The notes: a model not told the origin generated them from the sequence alone. A stretch of 25,776 bases of DNA from an uncultured virus (IMG/VR IMGVR_UViG_3300028025_004073) (IMGVR_UViG_3300028025_004073), one strand, 5' to 3'; counted from the first letter of the stretch, positions 10,337-24,744 are shown. Numbers and translations are program-made.

Positions 10337-10627
10337 ATGTCCCAAGAATTGAATACAAAAGTTGAAGATGTCCTGAAAGTATCAGGATCAAGTAACCCCC
10401 AGAGCGTAGGTTCTATCCTTGCCCGTTCTATTGTGGCTGGTCATTTGCCCAAGATTCGGGCTATTGGCGCAAGCGCTGTAAACCAAGCCGCTAAAGCATC
10501 AGCAATCGCACGGGGGTTTGTTGCCCCACGTGGCATTGACTTATCTTTTGTTATTGGCTTTGATGATATTATTGGAGAGAATGGAGAGAATATCTCCGCT
10601 ATTTCCTTCAAACCCGTAGTGAGGTAA
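10337..10627 (+). CDS. spoVS: SpoVS family protein
   Basis: VLKVSGSSNPQSV...RAIGASAVNQAAKASAIARGFVAPRGIDL is close to the SpoVS signature; AGGAG RBS. Confidence 0.9.
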   Translation: MSQELNTKVEDVLKVSGSSNPQSVGSILARSIVAGHLPKIRAIGASAVNQAAKASAIARGFVAPRGIDLSFVIGFDDIIGENGENISAISFKPVVR

Positions 10628-10630
10628 AAC

Positions 10631-11197
10631 ATGGGCTGGTTTAATCGTGATAAGGTGAACGGGATTACACCGTTTGCAAACAGTGGCGCACATCGCCCAC
10701 GAGTAGGTGCAACCCCAGATACTCACACGGTGCGTGACGACAGTGGCAACACTACACAGGCGATGACCCAGCGCCGTGCAGACCGTGATGCTGCATCTGC
10801 ATCAGGACCACACTCTGGTTATATCAACCCAAGTGGTGGTGATGCAATGGGTCCAAAAAAACCTAATATTAAAATTGGTGCTGAATACACCACTTACCAT
10901 GAACCAGGTTCTCCAGAAGGTAAAGCAATCCTTAAGGACAAAAAGAAGACTGCAAAGGCTTTGAAGAACGTAAACAGTCCTAAAGTAATGAATGAATCAC
11001 GAGCAGCCGCAGGTTCATTTGAGGTTGCTAAAGCAGAAGAAACAAAGCGTATGAAAGATAATCGTGCTATTGCTGGTGGAGAAGGAACTCCATTCTCCGA
11101 AAAACCATCTGGCAGTGAAGCCGCATACCTTAAAGGTGGGGCTAAGGCTGAACAAGCCTACCGTCAAGGTGAAAACCGCAAGCGAATGGGAAAGTAA
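10631..11197 (+). CDS. Hypothetical, probably disordered basic protein
   Basis: 188 aa; GAGGT upstream; G/A/K/S-rich; stop overlaps the next start (TAATG). Confidence 0.7.
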   Translation: MGWFNRDKVNGITPFANSGAHRPRVGATPDTHTVRDDSGNTTQAMTQRRADRDAASASGPHSGYINPSGGDAMGPKKPNIKIGAEYTTYHEPGSPEGKAILKDKKKTAKALKNVNSPKVMNESRAAAGSFEVAKAEETKRMKDNRAIAGGEGTPFSEKPSGSEAAYLKGGAKAEQAYRQGENRKRMGK

Positions 11198-11448
11198 TGC
11201 GTAACCGCCCAAGAACTGCTGAAACAATTAAGTACGGTGGTCGTAAGGCTCGCCGCCAAGTTGATCAAGCGCATAATACATCTGCCCCAACAAACACAAC
11301 TGACAAGGCAAGAGAAGCACGTGATGCGTTTGCTAAAACAAACCCAGATATATATGGTGGCTGGCATCCACAAACTAACCCAGATTATTTCCTACAAGGG
11401 ACTCCGCCCCAGTACAGAGAAAATCGTATTTCTGATCTTAATTGGTAA
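11197..11448 (+). CDS. Hypothetical protein (83 aa)
   Basis: TAATG coupling to the upstream gene; Arg-rich N-terminus. Confidence 0.65.
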   Translation: MRNRPRTAETIKYGGRKARRQVDQAHNTSAPTNTTDKAREARDAFAKTNPDIYGGWHPQTNPDYFLQGTPPQYRENRISDLNW

Positions 11449-11468
11449 AACTACCCAAAAGGTAAATA

Positions 11469-11591
11469 ATGGCTGCTAAAAAGAAAAAGACTGCTAAAAA
11501 GAAAGTTGCTCCTAAAAAGGATGCCCCACGCCCTATCACTTCTGCGGCAGGTGCGGCTGGAGGGTTTATTACTAGCATTGGAACTATCTAA
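11469..11591 (+). CDS. 40-aa Lys-rich micro-protein (not in the ORF track)
   Basis: MAAKKKKTAKKKVAPKKDAPRPITSAAGAAGGFITSIGTI*; AAGGT upstream; fills the gap; stop overlaps ATG 11591 (TAATG). Confidence 0.7.
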   Translation: MAAKKKKTAKKKVAPKKDAPRPITSAAGAAGGFITSIGTI

Positions 11592-11803
11592 TGCCTAAAG
11601 GACAAGACACTCGCAATCACCCTAAGCGCCAAGTAGGTCCACAAACTTCTACTGGTGGTAGTGGTACAACCCCACCTAAGAAACCAGGAACTAAGACTGG
11701 TGGGTATGGTGACAACGAACAGCCCCCTAGAAAGCCTTTTGAGTATCAAGAATCATATGATGAATCTCGTGAAAACAGGTACAGTAACGGCTGGTACAAC
11801 TAA
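11591..11803 (+). CDS. MPRG-leader family protein 1 (70 aa)
   Basis: Starts MPKGQDTRNHPKRQVG; TAATG-coupled at both ends. Confidence 0.8.
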   Translation: MPKGQDTRNHPKRQVGPQTSTGGSGTTPPKKPGTKTGGYGDNEQPPRKPFEYQESYDESRENRYSNGWYN

Positions 11804-12303
11804 TGGCTGGGTCTTCACAGACCTCGTTTAACCATTGGCAAGGACCATCTGAAGCCTCTGGTGGTGCAACCCAAAACCAATTTGGTCCTGCTCCTGTTTT
11901 CCGTAACAACAAGGATTACCAACTTGCTGGTTATCGGACTATTTCAGATACCACGTACCCAGATGGATACCTTGGAACAATGTCGTCTAACCGCCGACAA
12001 GACAAGATTCTTGGAACGCTTAGTCGCAATAACGCCCGTCAATATTCTCGTGGTGTCCACAAAGGTGAGCGTATTAACCAAGGCGATTACCTATGGCCTA
12101 ACGAGTTCAATCTTTGGACTGGGATCGCCCATGAGTCACGAGGTCAGAAATTCGCACCCCCAGGCGCAGTGCCTGTACAATTGACTAATGACGGAAAAGT
12201 TGGTCCCAAAGGAATCCCACGGGTTATTGACCAACCTAATCAGGACTATATTGACGCTGAACGCCGTGCCAAACTCCAATCGCTTCGCCCTTCTTGGAGA
12301 TAA
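11803..12303 (+). CDS. Hypothetical protein (166 aa)
   Basis: TAATG coupling; contains YPDGYLGT and RGVHKGERI..YLWP segments; no function assignable. Confidence 0.75.
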   Translation: MAGSSQTSFNHWQGPSEASGGATQNQFGPAPVFRNNKDYQLAGYRTISDTTYPDGYLGTMSSNRRQDKILGTLSRNNARQYSRGVHKGERINQGDYLWPNEFNLWTGIAHESRGQKFAPPGAVPVQLTNDGKVGPKGIPRVIDQPNQDYIDAERRAKLQSLRPSWR

Positions 12304-12306
12304 GTA

Positions 12307-12846
12307 ATGGCTGCTAAGAAAAAGAATGGTCAACCACGGGCTAAAAAAGGTGATCCACATGCTGCTTATTGGACTCCTGAAAGAACAGAAGAATTTAGTA
12401 TAAGACAACGCCAAGAAAATGCATGGCTGATGGCAGAAGAATTAAAAAGCCAAGCGTTTATGGATCATCCAAATTTTGCTGAATTACATAATCAAATCCA
12501 CACAGAAGATAGGAATAGAGATCCTGAACACCATAATGCGCTATTGGGACAATATGAAAATCTTAAATCTCAAATAGAAAAAGAACGTAGTATTCCAGAA
12601 GGGCATTTTGAAGAACAGGCTCTTAATAAAGCAACAGATATTGCAAACCAGTTTGAAGAACAGGGTGTTAAAGGTCCTATTAATTTTCAAACATTAAGAG
12701 GAAATGGAAGATGGAACTTTGATGAAGTTTCTCCAGGAAAATACGTTCCAACAGGGAGACTTGCTGAAAGCATTAGTAAACCCAGTAAACCTCATATTTC
12801 TGCTCAACAATTTCCTGTATTTCAACAACCATCTTTATTTGACTAA
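12307..12846 (+). CDS. Hypothetical protein with MAAKKK N-terminus and QPSLFD C-terminus (179 aa)
   Basis: Starts 3 nt after the upstream stop; visibly more AT-rich than its neighbours. Confidence 0.75.
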   Translation: MAAKKKNGQPRAKKGDPHAAYWTPERTEEFSIRQRQENAWLMAEELKSQAFMDHPNFAELHNQIHTEDRNRDPEHHNALLGQYENLKSQIEKERSIPEGHFEEQALNKATDIANQFEEQGVKGPINFQTLRGNGRWNFDEVSPGKYVPTGRLAESISKPSKPHISAQQFPVFQQPSLFD

Positions 12847-12854
12847 GGCTGTAT

Positions 12855-15155
12855 ATGGCTAAGAAAAAGAAAAATAACCCACTAGAAGGTCTTCAACGAT
12901 TTGATGTCGCCCCTAATTATGTACCAGAGATAAACAAAATCTTAGGTATGCGTCACCGCTTGGCTGGTGCATCACATGATAAATATTGGAAATCAAGAGG
13001 GCATGGTGAAGAAGACATGCTTAAAACAAAATGGGACAGACGAGCCGACTACCTAGAAAAGGGATTAGTAACACCATATCAATGGGGTACGTTTAGTTCT
13101 GGAAGAAGAGGTCCAATTGACGAGGAAGGAAACATTATTAAATATAATGTTGACGAAAAAGGAAACAGAACAACTCCTGTTGACCCTAATCAATGGCCTG
13201 ATGATTACTACAGTTATGGACTAGAAGCACATCCTGATTACCAACCAGGTTTTGAACTGCATGGTCCAGTTCATGAAGGTGGGGAAATACCAGACTGGAT
13301 AGGAAACGCCGTTCATCCTTATCGCACTGGATTTCCTAAGCCTCCACCAACTACACCATTGTATGAACCTAAACCTACAAAGGCTGGTGCAAAAGAAACT
13401 CAAAAAAGGGAAGAAAACCGACTAAAAGTAAAAGAAACATACGAAAGTTCTAGAGATTCACTTCTCAATACTTCTAATAAAACTGGTAAAGTAGAAGAAC
13501 CTGCATTACCCCAAGCATCGGAGAAGCCAGTGGCTAAGAAAAAGAAAAGCGAATCAGAATACGTTCCTTCACAAAGTGAAAAGGATTTTGCCGCAGGCCG
13601 AATGCCTGGCATTACTGGAACTGAAGCAGAAGCCGCAGCAGCGCTTGATAAAGCACGTAAATCAAACACTCGCAGAGCAACTGGTAAGGCTAGAGAAAAA
13701 CTTCAAGCAGAAATTGAAGCACATCCTGACTTCCGTGGGACTAGAGAAGTTTCTGACGCTGAGTCAGATGCCCCTGCTCCAAAGGGTAAGGGTAAGGGTA
13801 AAAAGAAGCCTTCCGCTCCTGCTGTTGGCTCACCAGAGGCAGTTGAAGCAGAACTTGCTACAGGTCGTTCTGCTCAACGTGAGAAGCCACGACCACCAGA
13901 AGAACCAAAGAAGACCGCAGTAGAACAGTACATGGCAGATATTAACGACCCAGAAAAAACTGCACAGAAGAAGGCTGAAATTGATGCTGCAATGGCAGCA
14001 CCTGCCGAAACTAAAAAGAAGCGCAACTTTCCAAACGTCAATAATAAGCCAACTGCGGCAGAAACTGCTGCTGAGACTGATGCACCTGACAAAAAGAAGC
14101 CAGGTTATTACCGAGAAAAGTACGGCGCACTTCTTGATTCAATGACACCAGAAGAAAAAGCAATGAGCGAAGCAGGAATGGCTGCTGTTAGGGATAAAGA
14201 AGAAGCAGCACTGGATGCTGATGCCTACGGAGATGAGGTCGGTGTAATTCGCTTTGGCTCTGATGCTGAAGATGCTTCTTCTTCTTCAGATCCAAATTGG
14301 GAATACTGGAAAAAACCAGCAGGTGATGGTAAAAAGTTCATTCTTAACACTGATAAGAGTGGAACCAGTGAACCTGTTTACGGAACAGCGTCAGAGGCTA
14401 AGGCAAACGCAGAGCGTATTCGTCAAATTCGTACTGCTCGTGAAGGCGGAACAATGCGGACTTCGGAGAGTGCTCCACGCCCTGCTGATGGGAACTTCTA
14501 TGATTGGGGTTCGGAAACAGAACCAACTCCTGCATCACCTGCTTCACCATCAAGACCAGGTTTAGGTGGTCGTATGCGTACGTTCTTTGGTGGTGGAAGA
14601 GGTGGTCGTGCTGGAGGTACGCCAACTCCTGCAACTAACACACCAATGACACCCCCATCGGTATCAGGTGGTGGAAAACCAAGTGCAATGCCAGCACCAG
14701 CAGGTCCAAGTTCTTCAGCGCCTGCTCCATCTGCTCCATCAAGTCGTTCTGGTTCGTTCTATAACATTTCAGGACCAGTTACTTTTGGTGATCAAACAAA
14801 CCTTGGTCGTGGTGATTTTGGTGGTGGCAACGGCGGTGGAATCAATGTTAATAACAGCGCAAACATAAACTTTGCCCCACAAGTAATTGGTGAATCCACA
14901 TTCGGAAACATCACTGGTGGAACTGTTAACACTACTCCAACAGTGGCGAGCACTGCTGGTCGTGCAACATCAACAAACAGGGGAGCAACCGTTCTTTCAA
15001 CGGGTGGCCCTGCAAGTTCTGGTCAGCCTTCACACCCACGTGCAAGGAATGCACAGAGTGCAGGTCGCCCAACAACAAACAATGCAGCACCTGCTTCTGC
15101 ACCAGCACCAGCACCTGCTTCTCAACCAAAAAACCCACGTAGAAAGAAGCCATAA
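12855..15155 (+). CDS. Large low-complexity, probably disordered protein (766 aa)
   Basis: 2.3-kb open frame; K/E/A/P-rich middle and P/S/G/T/N-rich C-terminus; contains TFGDQTNLGRGDFGGG. Confidence 0.85.
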   Translation: MAKKKKNNPLEGLQRFDVAPNYVPEINKILGMRHRLAGASHDKYWKSRGHGEEDMLKTKWDRRADYLEKGLVTPYQWGTFSSGRRGPIDEEGNIIKYNVDEKGNRTTPVDPNQWPDDYYSYGLEAHPDYQPGFELHGPVHEGGEIPDWIGNAVHPYRTGFPKPPPTTPLYEPKPTKAGAKETQKREENRLKVKETYESSRDSLLNTSNKTGKVEEPALPQASEKPVAKKKKSESEYVPSQSEKDFAAGRMPGITGTEAEAAAALDKARKSNTRRATGKAREKLQAEIEAHPDFRGTREVSDAESDAPAPKGKGKGKKKPSAPAVGSPEAVEAELATGRSAQREKPRPPEEPKKTAVEQYMADINDPEKTAQKKAEIDAAMAAPAETKKKRNFPNVNNKPTAAETAAETDAPDKKKPGYYREKYGALLDSMTPEEKAMSEAGMAAVRDKEEAALDADAYGDEVGVIRFGSDAEDASSSSDPNWEYWKKPAGDGKKFILNTDKSGTSEPVYGTASEAKANAERIRQIRTAREGGTMRTSESAPRPADGNFYDWGSETEPTPASPASPSRPGLGGRMRTFFGGGRGGRAGGTPTPATNTPMTPPSVSGGGKPSAMPAPAGPSSSAPAPSAPSSRSGSFYNISGPVTFGDQTNLGRGDFGGGNGGGINVNNSANINFAPQVIGESTFGNITGGTVNTTPTVASTAGRATSTNRGATVLSTGGPASSGQPSHPRARNAQSAGRPTTNNAAPASAPAPAPASQPKNPRRKKP
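14781..14828 (+). repeat. 48-nt dispersed repeat, copy 1 (encodes TFGDQTNLGRGDFGGG)
   Basis: 44/48 identical to 17350-17397; the first 26 nt are identical; all 4 differences are synonymous third positions. Confidence 0.95.
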
Positions 15156-15433
15156 TGCCTAGAGGAGAAAACACAAATAACCACCCTAACCGCAGGGTTG
15201 ATCGTTCAGGATTTGCTGCTAGGTCTTCAGAAAGACTTCCTACTTTTATTGACCGCCAGACATCAGGTTCTGACAAATTCACAAGTCCTGGTAGCGGTGA
15301 CCACCCGTCATACCAAATACCAGAAGGTGAAATTGGGCATCCTGGTGATGTTAAGGGAGCACCACGCCGAAAAGGTACTGGGAACATCCTAATTGACCCA
15401 ATCACAAACACGTGGTCAAACACACCACAATAA
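15155..15433 (+). CDS. MPRG-leader family protein 2 (92 aa)
   Basis: Starts MPRGENTNNHPNRRVDRSGFAARSSE; TAATG-coupled. Confidence 0.8.
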   Translation: MPRGENTNNHPNRRVDRSGFAARSSERLPTFIDRQTSGSDKFTSPGSGDHPSYQIPEGEIGHPGDVKGAPRRKGTGNILIDPITNTWSNTPQ

Positions 15434-15444
15434 AGGAATAGTTT

Positions 15445-15753
15445 ATGCCTAGAGGTGAAGATACACGCCATCACGGTGCTCGCATCGTAAGTCTTGATGC
15501 ACATCGTGCTAAAAAGGCAAAGCCTTCAATGATGTCACGCATTAAAGATGCATTGATTGGGCCTCCAGGAAATCCTGACTTGGATGACCCAAACACGCCT
15601 GAGTACACAGGTCAAGAAGCCCGTTTGTCTGATATTGCCCCTCGCAACCTTATTGATAAGGCTAAGGGTGGTACTGGACAGGTAGAAAAGAAACCTTTAT
15701 TCTCTTGGGATGAAAACAACAATCCATCCTTTAGAGGAAAGCCAATTAAGTAG
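15445..15753 (+). CDS. MPRG-leader family protein 3 (102 aa)
   Basis: Starts MPRGEDTRHHGARIVSL; AAAGGA upstream. Confidence 0.8.
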   Translation: MPRGEDTRHHGARIVSLDAHRAKKAKPSMMSRIKDALIGPPGNPDLDDPNTPEYTGQEARLSDIAPRNLIDKAKGGTGQVEKKPLFSWDENNNPSFRGKPIK

Positions 15754-15775
15754 TAATTAGAGAAACGAGAAAATC

Positions 15776-16114
15776 ATGGCACATGACCACAGAATGAACC
15801 CAATATCAGACCCTTTTCTTACTGCTAAAGCACGTTTAGCAGAAGATGCAAAAGCAGGAATGCTAAGACGTAAAAATGGTGTTGGTCGTTATGGCGCATC
15901 AGGGTCAGTTGGTCAACGAGGTATGGACAAATATATGGAAGACCTCAAGCGAGAAACAGCAGATCTGGGTTTTGATCCTGAAAATATGGAACATTTAGGT
16001 GGAGTACATCGTGTGTATGCGGCACATTTACCTATCCAAGATAGGCACTACCTCACAGGAAACATGGGTTTACCTGAAACAACTTCACCAGACGCTTTTG
16101 ATTTTTTAAAATAG
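15776..16114 (+). CDS. Hypothetical protein (112 aa)
   Basis: Fills the gap between two leader-family genes; lacks the leader. Confidence 0.7.
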   Translation: MAHDHRMNPISDPFLTAKARLAEDAKAGMLRRKNGVGRYGASGSVGQRGMDKYMEDLKRETADLGFDPENMEHLGGVHRVYAAHLPIQDRHYLTGNMGLPETTSPDAFDFLK

Positions 16115-16119
16115 TCGTA

Positions 16120-16386
16120 ATGCCTAGAGGACAAGACACTCGTTTTCACATGGGTCGCCAGGTTGGGCGTGATGTTATGGACATGCATAACGAGATAAAA
16201 GAAATGCAAATGGAATCTCGTGAGCGTCAGGCTAGAAAACATACGCAAAATGATGAAGAATTTGAAGCGTATTTGGATGCTTACGGAAACGATGGTGTTG
16301 CTAAATCAAATGATGAACAATACCATCCTGAAGCACCTGAAAACTGGTCAAGTTATGACCCTAACTTTTACCCACCAGAGCACTAA
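16120..16386 (+). CDS. MPRG-leader family protein 4 (88 aa, acidic body)
   Basis: Starts MPRGQDTRFHMGRQVG; first 23 nt are 22/23 identical to the start of the 11591 ORF. Confidence 0.8.
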   Translation: MPRGQDTRFHMGRQVGRDVMDMHNEIKEMQMESRERQARKHTQNDEEFEAYLDAYGNDGVAKSNDEQYHPEAPENWSSYDPNFYPPEH

Positions 16387-16396
16387 GGAAGCAATT

Positions 16397-16669
16397 ATGG
16401 CTAATGGAGAATCCACAGAACATCACCCAAATCGCAGAGTTGACCGTGCAGGATGTGCTGCTAGGTCTTTAGAGTCTTCAGGGTCTTCAGGTTTGTTTGG
16501 TTATAGAGACAAGTTTAATGATGCACTTTCTATGCACATGTCTGGTGATTCCAGTGATTATGAAGCACTCCTTAAATCAGAAGGTTATCTAACTCCTAGT
16601 GGAAAAGTTACTGGAGCAGGTAGGACAAACCCTATGGCTAGAAATAGTTTGAATTGGGATACCGAATAA
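16397..16669 (+). CDS. MPRG-leader family protein 5 (90 aa; start revised from 16220)
   Basis: AAGGA then ATG 16397; starts MANGESTEHHPNRRVDRAGCAARSLE, paralogous to the N-terminus of the 15155 ORF. Confidence 0.8.
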   Translation: MANGESTEHHPNRRVDRAGCAARSLESSGSSGLFGYRDKFNDALSMHMSGDSSDYEALLKSEGYLTPSGKVTGAGRTNPMARNSLNWDTE

Positions 16670-16992
16670 TGCCTACTGTAGATAACCACAGAAACACACG
16701 CCCGTGGCAGTCTCGTGAAGAGATGTTGACTGATATTGCGTTGCAATCAGCCATTTCTGACCCAGAAACTATTCGTGCTACTCGCCCTGTTGTACCACAG
16801 CAAGCATTCCCAGAAAGTCGTGGGTTTTTAAAGCAAGAACTTGGGATTGTGGACATTTTGTCAGTGGATCGTTGGACACCACAATACCGTTCATGGGTTT
16901 CAGGTGCTCCTGTGATGTTCCAAAGAGCACAAATGAACGATGATGAGTTTAGTGGTTCTGGGCGATACTCAATGCAAAGTCTTTGGGTATAA
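16669..16992 (+). CDS. Hypothetical protein (107 aa; start revised from 16654)
   Basis: TAATG overlap at 16667-16671; starts MPTVDNHRNTRPWQS. Confidence 0.75.
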   Translation: MPTVDNHRNTRPWQSREEMLTDIALQSAISDPETIRATRPVVPQQAFPESRGFLKQELGIVDILSVDRWTPQYRSWVSGAPVMFQRAQMNDDEFSGSGRYSMQSLWV

Positions 16993-16998
16993 TTAGAC

Positions 16999-17877
16999 AT
17001 GGCTAATAACCCTTTCGGCGGTGTCCCTCAGCAGAATATGTCTGCCCCAACTGGGCAGATTCAAGGTGGAAACTTTGCAGCCCCACAGCCATACAACGCT
17101 GGTACTGGTTCTATGCAACGTAACTGGGGTGCAACTTCTGGCCCACCACAACAAGACAGCATGCTTGCACAAGGTATGAATGCATGGATGATGAATCCTG
17201 CAAACCGAAATAACTTTTACAACTATCGTGCTGGTCGTGGTGGTGGTGGTCGTGGGTTCTGGGGTCGTGGAAGAAAACAACAGCAACAGCAACCGCAAGG
17301 TCCACAAAGCCCATCAACTACATATACGATCAACCTTGATCAACGAGCAACTTTTGGTGATCAAACAAACCTTGGGCGTGGTGACTTTGGTGGAGGATCT
17401 GCTGGAGTTCAATTTCAACAACCAACAGGTCAGCAACCAGTAGGGCAGAACCCAGCAGGGCAAACTCCCAGGCAACGCCCACAGTTAACCCAAGAGCAAA
17501 GGGATCGTAGAAACGCTACTGCTCGTGCTCGCCGTTCTCTTGCTACGGACATTGCAAAGAATGGAACTCCAGATCAACAACAGCGCATTCAACAACAGGG
17601 TGTTGCTGGTGGTAGGGTTCGTCAACCACGACAGCCTAAAACTGCTGCACAATCTACGCCTGCGATGCAACCACCTGCTGCTACCAACACAAACACTAGC
17701 GCAAACGTAAACAACGCCCCACAAATTTACGCCCCTAAAAATGGTGGTGCTTCAACAGGTACTTCTGGTGCTCCAGGCAACCCATTTATTTCAATTGGTG
17801 GAATGCGTGGTGGAAATGCACAATCTGGTGGTGCTTCAGCACAAGGTGCTGATTTTGATAGAATTAATATCTACTGA
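16999..17877 (+). CDS. Q/N/G-rich low-complexity protein (292 aa)
   Basis: Poly-Q, RGG-like tract, very few acidic residues; carries the second TFGDQTNLGRGDFGGG copy. Confidence 0.8.
   Translation: MANNPFGGVPQQNMSAPTGQIQGGNFAAPQPYNAGTGSMQRNWGATSGPPQQDSMLAQGMNAWMMNPANRNNFYNYRAGRGGGGRGFWGRGRKQQQQQPQGPQSPSTTYTINLDQRATFGDQTNLGRGDFGGGSAGVQFQQPTGQQPVGQNPAGQTPRQRPQLTQEQRDRRNATARARRSLATDIAKNGTPDQQQRIQQQGVAGGRVRQPRQPKTAAQSTPAMQPPAATNTNTSANVNNAPQIYAPKNGGASTGTSGAPGNPFISIGGMRGGNAQSGGASAQGADFDRINIY
17350..17397 (+). repeat. 48-nt dispersed repeat, copy 2
   Basis: Matches 14781-14828 at 44/48 positions. Confidence 0.95.
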
Positions 17878-17891
17878 GTAAAAGGATCTTT

Positions 17892-18092
17892 ATGCAAAAC
17901 ATGGAACGCTCCGCAAACGCTGATCTCCGCAAAGGAATCATGGATGGAACATACAAATCGCTTACCCCAGATCGTGGTGGTGATGTTGAGATGGAGTATG
18001 TAACCAAGCGAAATATTGTTGCTCCACCTCAGTACGGGATTACTCCTCGTAACCCAATGGCTGAGGCAACTGAACCAGTAATTAGCCTCTAA
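17892..18092 (+). CDS. Hypothetical protein (66 aa)
   Basis: AAAGGA RBS; fits the gene spacing. Confidence 0.7.
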   Translation: MQNMERSANADLRKGIMDGTYKSLTPDRGGDVEMEYVTKRNIVAPPQYGITPRNPMAEATEPVISL

Positions 18093-18103: not shown

Positions 18104-18439
18104 GTGGGTGACATTGTTGATATGGCGGAGTTCCGCAAGAAGAAGGCTGAACGCCAATTAAGTCAACGCCAGTTCCACCCTGCTGGTCAGGGTCTGTTTG
18201 GTGACGCTAAAAAGCAGATTGATGAAAGACTGTTTCACCAAAAGACTTTTGATCTTTTGAAAGGATTTCCAGACCAGACAATTCATGAGTTAGGTTCTGG
18301 TTTTGGTCATATTCCGAAGCAGATGGATATTATGAAGATGAAAGACTTGGACTATGATACTGTACGGTGGGATTTAGCGATGAATCCAGATTTTCATTAC
18401 ACATTAGGTCAAGCATTTAAGGACACTGATAATGAGTGA
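18104..18439 (+). CDS. Hypothetical protein (111 aa)
   Basis: AAAGGT upstream of GTG; starts MGDIVDMAEFRKKK. Confidence 0.7.
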   Translation: MGDIVDMAEFRKKKAERQLSQRQFHPAGQGLFGDAKKQIDERLFHQKTFDLLKGFPDQTIHELGSGFGHIPKQMDIMKMKDLDYDTVRWDLAMNPDFHYTLGQAFKDTDNE

Positions 18440-18611
18440 TAAAAAAGGTGCAAAGAAGGTTGCCAAAGTACTGAAAGAATATGCCAAAGGCGATCTTCAT
18501 TCAGGTTCTAAAGAAGGTCCTACGGTTACTTCCAAGAAGCAGGCAATTGCGATAGCATTGTCTGAAGCAGGTCAATCCAAAAAACAAACCAAGAAAAAGG
18601 CAGGTAAGTAA
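18432..18611 (+). CDS. 59-aa Lys-rich protein, DUF6496-like (not in the ORF track)
   Basis: MSDKKGAKKVAKVLKEYAKGDLHSGSKEGPTVTSKKQAIAIALSEAGQSKKQTKKKAGK*; the LHSG...KQAIAIALSEA motif is recognisable. Confidence 0.8.
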   Translation: MSDKKGAKKVAKVLKEYAKGDLHSGSKEGPTVTSKKQAIAIALSEAGQSKKQTKKKAGK

Positions 18612-22403: not shown

Positions 22404-22834
22404 TGGCTGATTTTCATCTGAGGAACTACTCAGAAGACATCATGGCAGAAGGAGTAAACAAAGAGTTTATGAGAACGCTTGCTCACATCCTCTTACCGCA
22501 CGTATACATTGTTGGTACTTGCGTACACAGCGATTCAGAAGAAAACGTGAACACAGCAATTGACGTTGCTGATGATCTATACACAAGTGGTATTTGTTTG
22601 CCAGTTATTCCTGCACTCACTTACTACTGGGAAAAACGTCACCCAAGAGGTTATGAGTTTTACAACGAATATTGCTTTCAGATAATGAAACGCTGCGATG
22701 CTGTTTTTGTTGATGAGATTCAAGAAGGTGCTGACTGGCATATTGATGAACTTGCTGAAGCACAACGCTTAGGTCTTCCAATCTTCTGGTCATCAGGAGA
22801 CTTACAAAATTGGGTAGAAGACGGAGCAGAATGA
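22403..22834 (+). CDS. Nucleoside 2-deoxyribosyltransferase-like (DUF4406/DUF1937-type) protein
   Basis: VYIVG...N...A...A..L...G..PVIP...MKRCDAVF...ELAEAQRLGLPIF pattern. Start could be 22442. Confidence 0.65.
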   Translation: MADFHLRNYSEDIMAEGVNKEFMRTLAHILLPHVYIVGTCVHSDSEENVNTAIDVADDLYTSGICLPVIPALTYYWEKRHPRGYEFYNEYCFQIMKRCDAVFVDEIQEGADWHIDELAEAQRLGLPIFWSSGDLQNWVEDGAE

Positions 22835-23247
22835 TAACAACACCTGACTGGATGTCAGATTCTTTATGTAGAAAAAAACACGGAGACATTTGGTTTCCAC
22901 CGTTTGAAACGACAACTCCAGAAATCAATTACGCAATAGCAAAAAAAGTCTGCAATGTCTGTCCAGTTTGGGCAGACTGTTTGTCGTTTGGTAAGAAAGA
23001 AATATACGGAGTGTGGGGTGGGCTAACACCACAGGAACGATTGCCAATGCAAAAAGAATCAAAGCAACAATTTCTTGCTGAACACGGGACTGTTACACGT
23101 TACCGTCAAGGATGCATTTGCCCCATTTGCTGTGAAGCGCATGATGATATGGAAGACACAGAATATGTGCTTATTGAAGAAATCCCCAATATTGGAGATA
23201 AATTGCCCGATCTAAAAAAGTTGCTCAAGAGGTTGTTAGAGGGCTGA
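22831..23247 (+). CDS. whiB: WhiB family transcription factor with C-terminal Cys/His extension
   Basis: W...LC...WFP...CNVCPVWADC...YGVWGGLTPQER; then HGT..RY..GCICPIC; ATGA overlap fixes the start at 22831. Confidence 0.92.
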   Translation: MITTPDWMSDSLCRKKHGDIWFPPFETTTPEINYAIAKKVCNVCPVWADCLSFGKKEIYGVWGGLTPQERLPMQKESKQQFLAEHGTVTRYRQGCICPICCEAHDDMEDTEYVLIEEIPNIGDKLPDLKKLLKRLLEG

Positions 23248-24094: not shown

Positions 24095-24433
24095 ATGGCA
24101 TACGAAAACATCAAGCCTTTGGGAGAAAATTGGGTGAATACCACAATCTCCGAAGGAACACTCCGCACTGAGGATTTGGCAAAAGCCTTTCTCAAAGTGA
24201 TCGGGGAACACGACCAAAAAATCAAAGATGCAATCCTTGACGAATGGACTGACGTTCTGTTTGCAATGATTGATCCAAAAGCAACACGTGACGAGGAACA
24301 AGAAATGTACCTTGTTGAGCACCTATGCAACGTCATGGATGCAATCGCACCAGAAGGTTGCATTTTTGGCGCACTGGAACATGACGGTGCTTGCTTTGGT
24401 TTCTGGGCTATGGAGGAAGTATGGGAGCGATAA
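24095..24433 (+). CDS. Hypothetical acidic phage protein (112 aa; start revised from 24071)
   Basis: AAAGGAG RBS; GTLRTEDL...APEGCIFG...DGACFGFW; function unknown. Confidence 0.75.
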   Translation: MAYENIKPLGENWVNTTISEGTLRTEDLAKAFLKVIGEHDQKIKDAILDEWTDVLFAMIDPKATRDEEQEMYLVEHLCNVMDAIAPEGCIFGALEHDGACFGFWAMEEVWER

Positions 24434-24744
24434 ATTACGAGGAGCGTTACATCCCAGAAGAAATTCGCAAGCCGCTTGTATTGCGTGAACCAATGACGTG
24501 GATGCAACATGGTACTTGCAAGAATGCACCACCAGATCAATTCTTTCCAGATCGCACGATGGGAAAAACTGATTACAAAAAAGTGATTGCAGAATATTGC
24601 AATGTATGCCCCGTAAAAGAAAGTTGTCTCAATTTTGCCATTGACAACTTTGAACTTGGTATCTGGGGTGGTACAACCACAAAAGGTCGTGTTGCAATTA
24701 GAGCAAAAATGGTGGAAGAAAGAAAAGCACAATGTCAGCAGTAG
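24421..24744 (+). CDS. whiB: WhiB family transcription factor (second copy)
   Basis: GGAGG RBS; W...TC...DQFFP...CNVCPVKESC...LGIWGGTT. Confidence 0.92.
   Translation: MGAINYEERYIPEEIRKPLVLREPMTWMQHGTCKNAPPDQFFPDRTMGKTDYKKVIAEYCNVCPVKESCLNFAIDNFELGIWGGTTTKGRVAIRAKMVEERKAQCQQ

Follow-up and report, generated by a model that had tools for sequence, protein, structure and literature searches.

In Staphylococcus phage 80alpha, the capsid and scaffold proteins carry N-terminal leaders that are removed by the host protease Prp and mimic an extension of a host ribosomal protein. Encapsulin cargo-loading peptides, usually C-terminal and hydrophobic or glycine-rich, dock diverse cargo inside a shell of the HK97 fold. 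RiPP precursors (e.g. NHLP/Nif11-type) are encoded by many tandem genes per genome and have a conserved N-terminal leader and a hypervariable remainder, and the typical viral hijacking protein is a disordered carrier with a short terminal motif. The T-even internal proteins are described, in passages of two reports, as a diverse set with only an N-terminal capsid targeting sequence in common (PMC3012670, PMC9026906). According to the same passages, the first 10 residues of T4 IPIII suffice for targeting and for loading foreign proteins into the head, and the internal-protein cargo set differs between related phages (PMC3012670, PMC9026906).

The window analyzed here is a 25,776-nucleotide stretch of DNA from an uncultured virus (IMG/VR IMGVR_UViG_3300028025_004073), and it contains five small genes that begin with a common leader peptide. 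The leader is probably a docking tag for some shared receptor.

A 17-residue N-terminal leader on dissimilar proteins

The five genes are on the + strand (starts 11591, 15155, 15445, 16120, and 16397) and open with M-[PA]-[RKN]-G-[EQ]-[DNS]-T-x-x-H-x-x-R-x-V. The coordinates and N-termini given in the first-pass annotation were all confirmed in the window, as was the invariance of M1, G4, T7, H10, R13, and V15 within the five leaders. The first gene (11591..11803, +) encodes 70 aa (MPKGQDTRNHPKRQVG...; leader codons 1-17 at 11591-11641) with a P/G/K-rich body ending in ...RENRYSNGWYN, and its start overlaps the upstream stop (TAATG). The second (15155..15433, +; 92 aa, MPRGENTNNHPNRRVDR...; leader 15155-15205) has a start that overlaps the stop of a 766-aa ORF. 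The third (15445..15753, +; 102 aa, MPRGEDTRHHGARIVS...; leader 15445-15495) has 46 homologous clusters, all unnamed or "hypothetical", in which the body core DPNTPEYTGQEARLSD is conserved. It is followed, inside the array, by a small gene that has no leader (15776..16114, +; 112 aa, no leader HMM or family match). The fourth leader gene (16120..16386, +; 88 aa, MPRGQDTRFHMGRQVGR...; leader 16120-16170) has an acidic body and a whole-protein net charge of -9; its relatives keep the first ~40 residues and carry a different C-terminal module. The fifth (16397..16669, +; 90 aa, MANGESTEHHPNRRVDR...; leader 16397-16447) lies within a longer, GTG-started ORF (16220-16669), and residue 60 of that ORF, where the leader HMM matches, corresponds to the ATG at 16397.

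Six-frame scans of the window gave no further occurrence of the motif beyond these genes. The patterns T..H..R.V and G..T..H..R.V were each found 5 times in the six frames, with T as residue 7 after an ATG in all cases, while 0.45 and 0.02 occurrences, respectively, were expected from the six-frame residue composition; in 200 shuffles, T..H..R.V had a mean of 0.47 and a maximum of 3.

The leader profile was searched against 1.84 billion protein representatives and gave 123 matches, 119 of which begin at residue 1. All 119 are proteins of 50-200 aa, and BLAST sorts their bodies into 89 groups, of which 75 have a single member. The loci examined contained 159 leader ORFs (76 distinct proteins, 33 body groups), with 1-5 leader genes in each of the ten whole virus records searched. 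The first-pass annotation had proposed such a profile search, naming N-terminal-only matches, several per genome, on non-homologous bodies as the supporting outcome, and this is what was obtained.

In the wider set the consensus is MARGEDT[RS]xHP[NG]RxV[GSD]R, exactly 17 residues. The length of ~15 aa given earlier was therefore too short: the information content is ~2.5 bits at position 17 and <0.9 bits from position 18, a step-like drop in the profile of the 119 representatives, and the conserved block closes abruptly on a basic residue. G4, R13, and V15 are invariant and D6, T7, H10, and P11 near-invariant across the 119 clusters, an invariance that is partly built in, as the same profile picked them. 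T7 and H10 are not universal beyond the window; H10 is replaced with D or N in 8/119 representatives, and in remote orthologues of the 15445 gene the leader reads MARGNDESRNGARIV. At position 2, the 119 representatives have A (78), P (38), or S (3). Residues 1-17 are polar except V15 and net-basic. The earlier exclusion of a Sec or Tat signal, based on the lack of a hydrophobic core, was borne out, with an 18-residue hydrophobic window in only 1/119 proteins.

It was also correct that no described family covers the leader. The five window genes had no match in Pfam, PHROGs, or NCBIfam, and none of 118 leader representatives searched against Pfam was above its cut-off (E up to 1). Only chance matches were obtained with the profile among PDB sequences (a designed repeat protein, a SecY loop), and the 15445 protein had no usable match in the protein atlas. 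A full-text literature search with leader strings gave no paper, and nothing on the leader motif was contained in titles, abstracts, and main-text passages on the motif concept, BRock, and freshwater actinophages. Across 596 billion bases of prokaryote genomes the pattern was matched in no more than 13 stretches, and no locus was obtained.

Selection on the leaders and on the bodies

The bodies had been described as unrelated, which holds for most pairs in the window (E >0.06); the 15155 and 16397 proteins are weak paralogues (E 0.008, 30% identity, 59 aa, with the leader removed), and the five genes represent four body types. Full-length alignment of the kind seen for ordinary paralogues was not observed, given 89 BLAST groups among 119 proteins and one weak pair in the window. 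The body designs include acidic helical ones, P/G-rich ones, and ones with zinc-ribbon-like CxxC pairs (11/119), and a charge-hydropathy plot places 97/119 bodies in its disordered zone. The AlphaFold2 model of the 15445 family was largely of low confidence (pLDDT 58.9), with residues 1-16 as coil. All five window proteins have a Trp close to the C-terminus, and Tyr or Trp was found within the last 8 residues in 71/119 proteins compared with 41.7 +/- 4.6 in random internal windows. The bodies are under purifying selection: dN/dS was 0.04-0.42 in the 7 leader-gene pairs with a computable ratio, so the bodies belong to real genes, and 0.05-0.20 for the body of the 15445 family.

The variation of codons at invariant residues, reported earlier for the window, was confirmed on 30 distinct leader DNAs. 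At G4, T7, R13, and V15, codon positions 1 and 2 each carry 2.0 bits and position 3 carries 0.5-1.0 bits, and the codon of R3 is AGA or CGT. Selection acts at the level of the peptide and not of the RNA, as the third codon positions are free. A conserved RNA element at the gene starts was ruled out by the free third positions, the use of AGA and CGT for Arg, and the lack of an Rfam match in the window.

The earlier suggestion that the conserved 5' DNA aids shuffling gained direct support from one orthologous pair, in which the bodies differ by a dS of 0.06 and the leaders by a dS of 0.58 and a dN of 0.28. The altered patch of the leader is that of the neighboring paralogue, and the leader is thus exchanged between neighboring genes by gene conversion. 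Chimeric bodies were found as well: in other phages, the C-terminal module of the 11591 protein is fused to a body of the 15445 family.

These data bear on whether a shared reader of the leader is needed at all. The leader might be the slow-evolving vestige of a single ancestral gene, or might simply favor expression, while the disordered bodies drifted apart until no longer recognizable. Disordered sequence diverges fast, the genes stand in tandem like duplicates, one pair in the window is still recognizable as paralogues, and the C-terminal Trp is common to all five. Drift, however, does not account for a peptide that is constrained at seven positions over 119 clusters, has free synonymous sites and a step-like boundary at residue 17, and is actively exchanged between genes, nor do the bodies look like drifted copies, being of clearly different designs; conservation at the RNA level is excluded by the codon analysis and the Rfam result. 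We therefore consider a leader without a reader highly improbable, and a docking tag remains the preferred explanation.

Distribution, gene neighborhoods, and candidate receptors

The tag is confined to one phage clade with an N4-gp56-family capsid protein, related to the Streptomyces myovirus BRock. The capsid protein belongs to Pfam Phage_capsid_3/4 and is an "N4-gp56 family major capsid protein" by the naming of one source; its family comprises >5,000 clusters. The reference was G005, which is complete and belongs to the window's lineage; the capsid proteins of the four leader-bearing records checked (low-GC G007; high-GC G008, G012, and G013) were 58-83% identical to that of G005. BRock has the same head type and no leader gene, and the head therefore does not need the tagged proteins. 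A 15-bit leader-like match in BRock was dismissed, as it is antisense to the annotated gp80. No cultured leader-bearing phage was found among the GenBank phage records searched, and the leader-bearing uncultured phages probably infect actinobacteria. Their GC content is 42-50% or 62-64%, and the leader consensus is identical in the low-GC and high-GC phages, so the binding site that is read must be highly conserved.

In the window, the leader genes are part of a 7.5-kb co-directional run of genes for polar low-complexity proteins (10631..18092, +; composition table), none of which matches Pfam, PHROG, or NCBIfam. A conserved SpoVS-family gene (10337..10627, +; Pfam PF04232, E 4e-20) forms the left border of this region; it is present in 16/20 representative loci and corresponds to gp51 in BRock. 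The run also holds three genes conserved across loci: F2 (11803..12303, +; 166 aa), which opens a variable slot, F0 (16669..16992, +; ~102-107 aa), which closes the leader array, and F3 (17892..18092, +; 66 aa), downstream of F0 and by eye similar to BRock gp45. The F0 family comprises 436 clusters, all unnamed. Homologues of F2 were found by tblastn in only 6 of 50,697 phage records, from five Streptomyces phages (BRock twice, GiJojo, Alone3, LuckySocke, and pSt2308). Large low-complexity proteins encoded at 12855-15155 and 16999-17877 complete the run and have a TFGDQTNLGRGDFGGG box in common. Between 9800 and 19500, promoter and terminator predictions were no more frequent than in shuffled sequence.

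A setting of this kind would be compatible with a sorting code of a new kind, in which the leader is a client-recruitment tag that gathers disordered proteins into a phage-built assembly other than the capsid, for example a condensate that may be scaffolded by the low-complexity proteins at 12855-15155 and 16999-17877 and have F2, F0, and F3 as its core. Disordered proteins are encoded one after another in the region and F0 is not confidently folded alone, both of which would fit; we nevertheless regard such an assembly as very unlikely.

The leader arrays of the window's lineage occupy the variable slot between F2 and F0, and the gene content between the conserved anchors differs from phage to phage. 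Among 20 representative loci, 17 had both a leader gene and F0, and in 17/17 the array was upstream of F0, directly in 14 and with two small genes between in 3; the array was also directly upstream of F0 in 6 of 7 further loci. Array genes are often translationally coupled, with 45 of 78 distinct leader-gene starts overlapping the preceding stop codon. This position and coupling make F0 the first candidate for a non-structural phage protein on which the leader could dock, F0 serving as an adaptor or chaperone, and its conservation together with a poor AlphaFold2 model (pLDDT 50 alone) is what would be expected of a protein that folds on a partner. Leader and F0 are not inseparable, however. 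A distance of 23 kb separates the leader gene from F0 in the complete genome G007, and the F2-F0 slot there consists of two small genes without a leader. The high-GC record G012 (68 kb, 58% complete) has leader genes and neither F0 nor F2, whereas in BRock, by eye, an F0-like gene directly follows F2 and there are no leader genes. The adjacency may merely mark a slot that tolerates insertions, and docking on F0 is judged quite improbable.

A receptor in the host is a stronger candidate and the chief alternative to head loading. The leader would then be a host-directed short linear motif that docks on one conserved actinobacterial hub protein, e.g. of the transcription, replication, or proteolysis machinery, while the bodies add different activities or second contacts; on this reading the tagged proteins would not be packaged and would work inside the cell as take-over or anti-defence factors. 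The design is that of typical hijacking proteins, disordered with a short terminal motif, and the enrichment of Tyr and Trp near the C-terminus fits bipartite docking. One leader serves phages of both GC classes, and as these presumably infect different hosts, the target would have to be very conserved. Most genomes have their arrays at a distance from the head genes, amid genes for replication, recombination, and DNA modification, and the single leader gene of G007 is closely grouped with an ADP-ribosyltransferase-like gene near a sigma-factor-like gene. Unrelated actinophages, however, should also have acquired a tag for a host hub, yet tblastn, a weak tool for a 17-residue motif, found a leader match with 0/3 leader proteins in the 50,697 GenBank phage records, among them those of thousands of actinophages, and every context recovered is from one phage clade with a common head type. 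On balance, we consider a host hub rather unlikely.

Possible head loading and comparison with known systems

For the docking tag, the most likely receptor would be a conserved part of the assembling phage head. We propose that one clade joins the 17-residue peptide to many small, mostly disordered proteins via duplication and recombination within the leader DNA, that a single shared receptor recognizes all of the tagged proteins, and that these would enter the capsid and be delivered together with the DNA. That the tag loads proteins into the head specifically, as the T4 capsid targeting sequence does, is an analogy that we hold tentatively, as a serious possibility somewhat short of probable. 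Residue 2 is always Pro, Ala, or Ser, and the initiator Met should therefore be removed; the free N-terminus would probably be part of the recognized signal, which would be why the motif is never internal.

Head loading is favored by the limitation of the tag to phages of one capsid type and by three distinct high-GC contigs that have leader genes in the interval bounded by the large terminase and the portal (immediately upstream of the latter in two), followed by the scaffold and capsid genes. One of these terminase-portal arrays encloses a homologue of the gene after the terminase in the window's lineage. The tagged proteins are also cargo-like, being small and mostly disordered, with the leader modeled as coil. 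Against head loading, most arrays lie beside replication and DNA-modification genes, away from the head genes. The G007 neighborhood would fit injection but also an early take-over of the host. A complex prediction with the leader alignment, capsid protein, scaffold, and F0 together, with the portal left out and run without controls, scored 0.00 against a mark of 0.32 and weighs neither way.

No classical prohead protease, gp21-like or other, was found with PHROGs and Pfam in the head module of G005, which likewise counts against head loading. The leader HMM matched no other ORF in any locus examined, including those for capsid, scaffold, and portal. The MAKGNDE start of the scaffold in four records of the window's kind was considered as a diverged leader and dropped, as it has no R13 or V15 and reads MAKNSSPEGD in G004. 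With no match in other ORFs and a scaffold start that is not conserved, there is no shared cleavage motif like that of the T4 substrates.

The leader could also be a processing or turnover signal, i.e. a degron or cleavage tag setting when the proteins are destroyed or activated, read by a phage HslV/proteasome-like peptidase or by a host AAA+ protease engaging the free disordered N-terminus. A free disordered N-terminus with a small residue 2 suits unfoldase engagement or N-terminal recognition. The leader has this strictly N-terminal position, small residue 2, and disordered context, along with a sharp end on basic residue 17, and the window's lineage encodes an N-terminal-threonine peptidase (MTTIVAV...; PHROG "peptidase HslV family", with weak Pfam Proteasome and NCBIfam HslV matches), which adjoins the portal in G005. 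The HslV-like gene is missing, however, from G007, which is complete and leader-bearing, and this peptidase was set aside as an obligatory reader for that reason. No known degron in Pfam, NCBIfam, PHROGs, or PDB sequences resembles the motif, and it is not obvious why >100 protein families would need one elaborate 17-residue degron. Such a signal appears improbable to us, and loading into the head is retained as the preferred role of the docking tag.

If the tag does load the head, the clade would have a modular protein-delivery system with >100 natural cargo families, a rich stock of candidate anti-defence and take-over factors for freshwater and soil Actinobacteria. The 17-residue handle could also be used, like the T4 sequence, to load chosen proteins into particles. 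Docking on a host hub would instead make this one of the clearest cases in bacterial viruses of motif-based hijacking via disordered miniproteins. Either way, >100 orphan phage protein families are now linked by one peptide and could be assigned to a common step.

Among the known systems, RiPP precursors resemble the arrays in having several tandem genes with one conserved N-terminal leader and a variable remainder. The "cores" here, however, are 35-180 polar residues under ordinary purifying selection rather than short and Cys/Ser/Thr-rich, and no RiPP modifying enzyme, leader peptidase, or exporter was matched with Pfam or PHROG among the 42 window ORFs. Viral hijacking motifs are similar in their disordered carrier, short conserved terminal motif, and loose aromatic or charged C-terminal tail, although the leader, compared with typical linear motifs of 3-10 residues, is much longer and has a stricter position. 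Encapsulin cargo peptides are likewise short and terminal, and the present phages have a capsid protein of that shell type; no sequence likeness to the encapsulin peptides was seen, and binding to the capsid is a candidate interaction in our case. Phage 80alpha also has a short N-terminal peptide on several phage proteins that is read by a single processing enzyme, but there the leader is on major structural proteins, whereas here the tag is absent from the capsid and scaffold and marks accessory miniproteins.

The T4 capsid targeting sequence (IPI, IPII, IPIII, and Alt) differs from the present leader in its processing, since in T4 a prohead protease removes the peptide at a motif shared with head proteins, whereas in the complete relative no gp21-type protease and no cleavage motif in common with capsid, scaffold, or portal was found. 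The present tag is 17 polar, net-basic residues long and was found solely on proteins of 50-200 aa, none of them enzyme-sized like Alt. In both systems, as far as the passages cited above describe T4, a lytic myovirus has one short, conserved peptide at the N-termini of proteins that are otherwise dissimilar, fast-evolving, and mostly small, and the genes are located in variable regions outside the core head operon.

Leader genes in the window

All credible genes of the window were on the + strand. A replication and recombination module (primase, SNF2 helicase, MerR-type regulator, SSB, family-A DNA polymerase, RecA/UvsX-like recombinase, resolvases, Cas4-type exonuclease, and a SpoVS-family protein, 10337–10627) was followed by a run of 7.5 kb (10631–18092, +) whose genes encode polar, low-complexity products with no match in Pfam, PHROG or NCBIfam. 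DUF6496, Dps/ferritin, queuine-tRNA-ribosyltransferase-like (DpdA-type) and WhiB genes were located downstream. The five leader genes (starting at 11591, 15155, 15445, 16120, and 16397) were all within the polar run, and the N-termini read in the first-pass annotation were all confirmed. In the six-frame translation, T..H..R.V and G..T..H..R.V occurred five times each, always with T as residue 7 counted from ATG (expected, 0.45 and 0.02, respectively; maximum, 3 over 200 shuffles), and the feature is real, far beyond chance. The bodies, i.e., the remainders after the leader, had been called unrelated; this held for most pairs, which showed no likeness after leader removal, but not for 15155 and 16397, which were weakly alike (E 0.008). 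All five proteins had a Trp near the C-terminus.

The run also contained genes for two large low-complexity proteins of 766 and 292 aa (12855–15155 and 16999–17877), which shared a 25-residue box around TFGDQTNLGRGDFGGG (E 7e-8) and were otherwise Ala/Pro/Gly/Gln-rich, with no family match. Three genes (11469–11591, 12307–12846, and 12855–15155) began with MA(A)KKK(K), possibly another N-terminal feature that recurs in the region; a small gene upstream of F2 in the related virus G007 resembled them. The window ORFs 22810–23247 (WhiB by Pfam and PHROGs) and 24391–24744 formed one BLAST family, with a single member in most loci compared.

Spread and shape of the leader

Related virus contigs were recovered with back-translated leader patterns. 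When every ORF of a first set of these loci was scanned with a leader HMM, N-terminal placement held: all 107 matches were at the start codon, the seeming offsets being longer upstream alternative starts. The full set of loci contained 159 start-aligned leader ORFs (76 distinct proteins, 33 body groups), and each of the ten whole virus records searched had 1–5 leader genes. A profile built from 18 leaders was run against 1.84 billion representatives (E up to 0.001) and gave 123 matches, 119 of which started at residue 1 and measured 50–200 aa (P0050–P0171 and P0001). The remaining four were repeat proteins, each matched weakly at several internal positions. Two library proteins unrelated to each other, P0076 and P0150, carried several internal FHSTRKVSR copies partly mimicking leader positions 9–17, and are likely to be repeat proteins with a separate origin.

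Across the 119 proteins, the logo read M, A/P/S, R/K/N, G, E/Q/K, D, T, R/S, x (positions 1–9) and H, P, N/G/A, R, x, V, G/S/D, R/K (positions 10–17), after which information dropped abruptly; its invariance is partly built in, because the profile itself selected these proteins. As predicted from the window, several unlike bodies stood behind one leader (89 BLAST groups among 119 bodies, 75 of them singletons). Most bodies (97/119) fell in the disordered zone of the charge-hydropathy plot, one had a hydrophobic stretch, and 11 had paired CxxC motifs; none of 118 leader proteins had a Pfam family above the cut-off. In the AlphaFold2 model of the 15445 family (30 sequences, pLDDT 58.9), residues 1–16 were low-confidence coil. 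The C-terminal tails of the 119 proteins were enriched in Tyr/Trp and charged residues without a fixed register, with Y or W within the last 8 residues in 71 proteins (41.7 ± 4.6 for internal windows). C-terminal Trp endings were also seen in F2 (…W[RK]), most F0 members (…LW.), and the window ORF 11197–11448 (…LNW).

Genomic contexts, selection, and host phages

Leader genes were found in three contexts. In the low-GC lineage (42–50% GC), the order was a RusA-like resolvase, SpoVS, variable genes, F2 (11803–12303 in the window), variable genes, the leader array, F0 (16669–16992), a large low-complexity protein, F3 (17892–18092), and then genes up to DpdA. A leader gene and F0 occurred together in 17 of 20 representative loci, the array being upstream of F0 in all 17 (with no gene in between in 14 and two small ones in three), and the array directly adjoined F0 in 6/7 further loci. 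In three distinct high-GC contigs (62–64% GC), leader genes occupied the interval from the large terminase to the portal, followed by scaffold and capsid genes. G007 had a single leader gene, ahead of an ADP-ribosyltransferase-like gene, near a sigma-factor-like gene and 23 kb from F0, and its F2–F0 slot contained two small genes without the leader. Docking of the leader on F0 would accord with the arrays beside F0 and less with G007, and is very unlikely.

BRock, a Streptomyces myovirus (PMC7453282), retained SpoVS and F2; by sequence reading, F0-like and F3-like genes followed F2, with no leader genes. The F2–F0 slot is a variable region. SpoVS and F2 formed a syntenic core common to the window and BRock (gp51 and gp48; L044 8060–10186), and gp47 and gp45 resembled F0 and F3, respectively, by sequence reading; F0 alone was not confidently folded (pLDDT 50). 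The ADP-ribosyltransferase-like gene of G007 (L038:10615–11103, +; Pfam PARP, E 2.7e-9; ART-PolyVal) overlapped the small gene next after the sole leader gene, with a Sigma70_r4 protein encoded ~1.4 kb downstream. Small Lys-rich proteins were encoded beside leader genes in both lineages: DUF6496 (window 18432–18611) and a 58-aa product between two leader genes of a high-GC contig (L061:1674–1850, +).

G4, T7, R13, and V15 had invariant first and second codon positions and a variable third position among 30 distinct leader DNAs, as the first-pass annotation had proposed for selection on the peptide; Arg3 was encoded by AGA or CGT. Rfam gave no match in the window. Selection acts on the leader peptide, not on RNA. 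The arrays are largely translationally coupled, since 45 of 78 distinct leader-gene starts overlapped the stop codon of the preceding gene (TAATG or TGATG); an SD-like word preceded 24. The bodies are under purifying selection (dN/dS 0.04–0.42 in the seven leader-gene pairs with a computable ratio). The orthologues L007:10288 and L008:9373 had nearly identical bodies (dS 0.06) and leaders differing by dS 0.58 and dN 0.28, the divergent patch (codons 6–12) being identical to the leader of the adjacent gene L007:10001, a case of gene conversion between leaders. The C-terminal module of the 11591 protein ended some orthologues of the 15445 body, and alternative C-terminal modules occurred within the 16120 family.

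By polymerase, F2, and capsid protein, the nearest cultured relatives were BRock-type Streptomyces myoviruses. An actinobacterial host is likely, since WhiB genes serve as actinophage markers (excerpts of PMC10914622). The complete 98-kb relative G005 is a myovirus: the portal is of the SPP1 type, with an HslV/proteasome-like peptidase encoded beside it, the scaffold is a coiled coil, and the capsid protein belongs to the N4-gp56 family. The capsid proteins of four leader-bearing relatives checked (G007, G008, G012, and G013) were 58–83% identical to that of G005, and the leader is confined to phages of one head type. The BRock capsid protein was 64% identical to that of G005, and no leader gene was found in BRock. 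The leader pattern occurred in only 13 stretches of 596 billion bases of prokaryote genomes, with no locus recovered, and three queries did not find the leader in 50,697 GenBank phage records.

The peptidase gene of G005 (L012:19015–19647, −; N-terminal threonine, MTTIVAV...), two genes upstream of the portal, was also present in G002, G003, and G004 (with an in-frame TAG in the last) and absent from G007 and BRock; its product might be an unusual head-maturation protease. The IMG/VR direct terminal repeat of G005 (98,060 bp; L011, L015) fell between F2 and the leader genes, within the run of polar-protein genes, and may mark a genuine end of the genome or have arisen when a permuted genome was assembled.

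Leader function and known systems

We argue for one common reader of the free N-terminal peptide, because the 17-residue leader is restricted to the N-terminus, ends sharply and is strongly constrained, has a small residue at position 2, and spans dozens of unrelated disordered miniproteins among which it is actively exchanged. Removal of the initiator Met by methionine aminopeptidase is expected before a small residue 2. That the leaders have no shared reader is the least probable reading, below even docking on F0; a turnover or processing signal is only a little less improbable than these, and docking on a conserved host protein, although ahead of all three, is unlikely.

Loading of the tagged miniproteins into the phage head is ranked first, at somewhat under even chances, because the tag is confined to one head type, its consensus is unchanged between lineages with scaffolds only 30–35% identical, and leader genes occupy the terminase–portal interval in one lineage. 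Against head loading stand the missing protease, the missing shared cleavage motif, and the non-structural gene context in most genomes.

Comparison with the defining features of known classes rejected a Sec/Tat signal, a RiPP leader, an RNA element, and an ordinary paralogue family. The earlier view that no described family has this motif was upheld by curated families and by the papers found in literature searches. In head loading, the leader would act like the capsid targeting sequence (CTS) of T4 internal proteins. The two are alike in layout, but Pfam and PHROGs identified no gp21-type protease in the head module of G005, and we claim no membership in the T4 system. Phage accessory proteins with portable N-terminal address tags are already known as a kind; the leader is a genuine and widespread N-terminal peptide module of phage miniproteins, previously undescribed and with a putative function.
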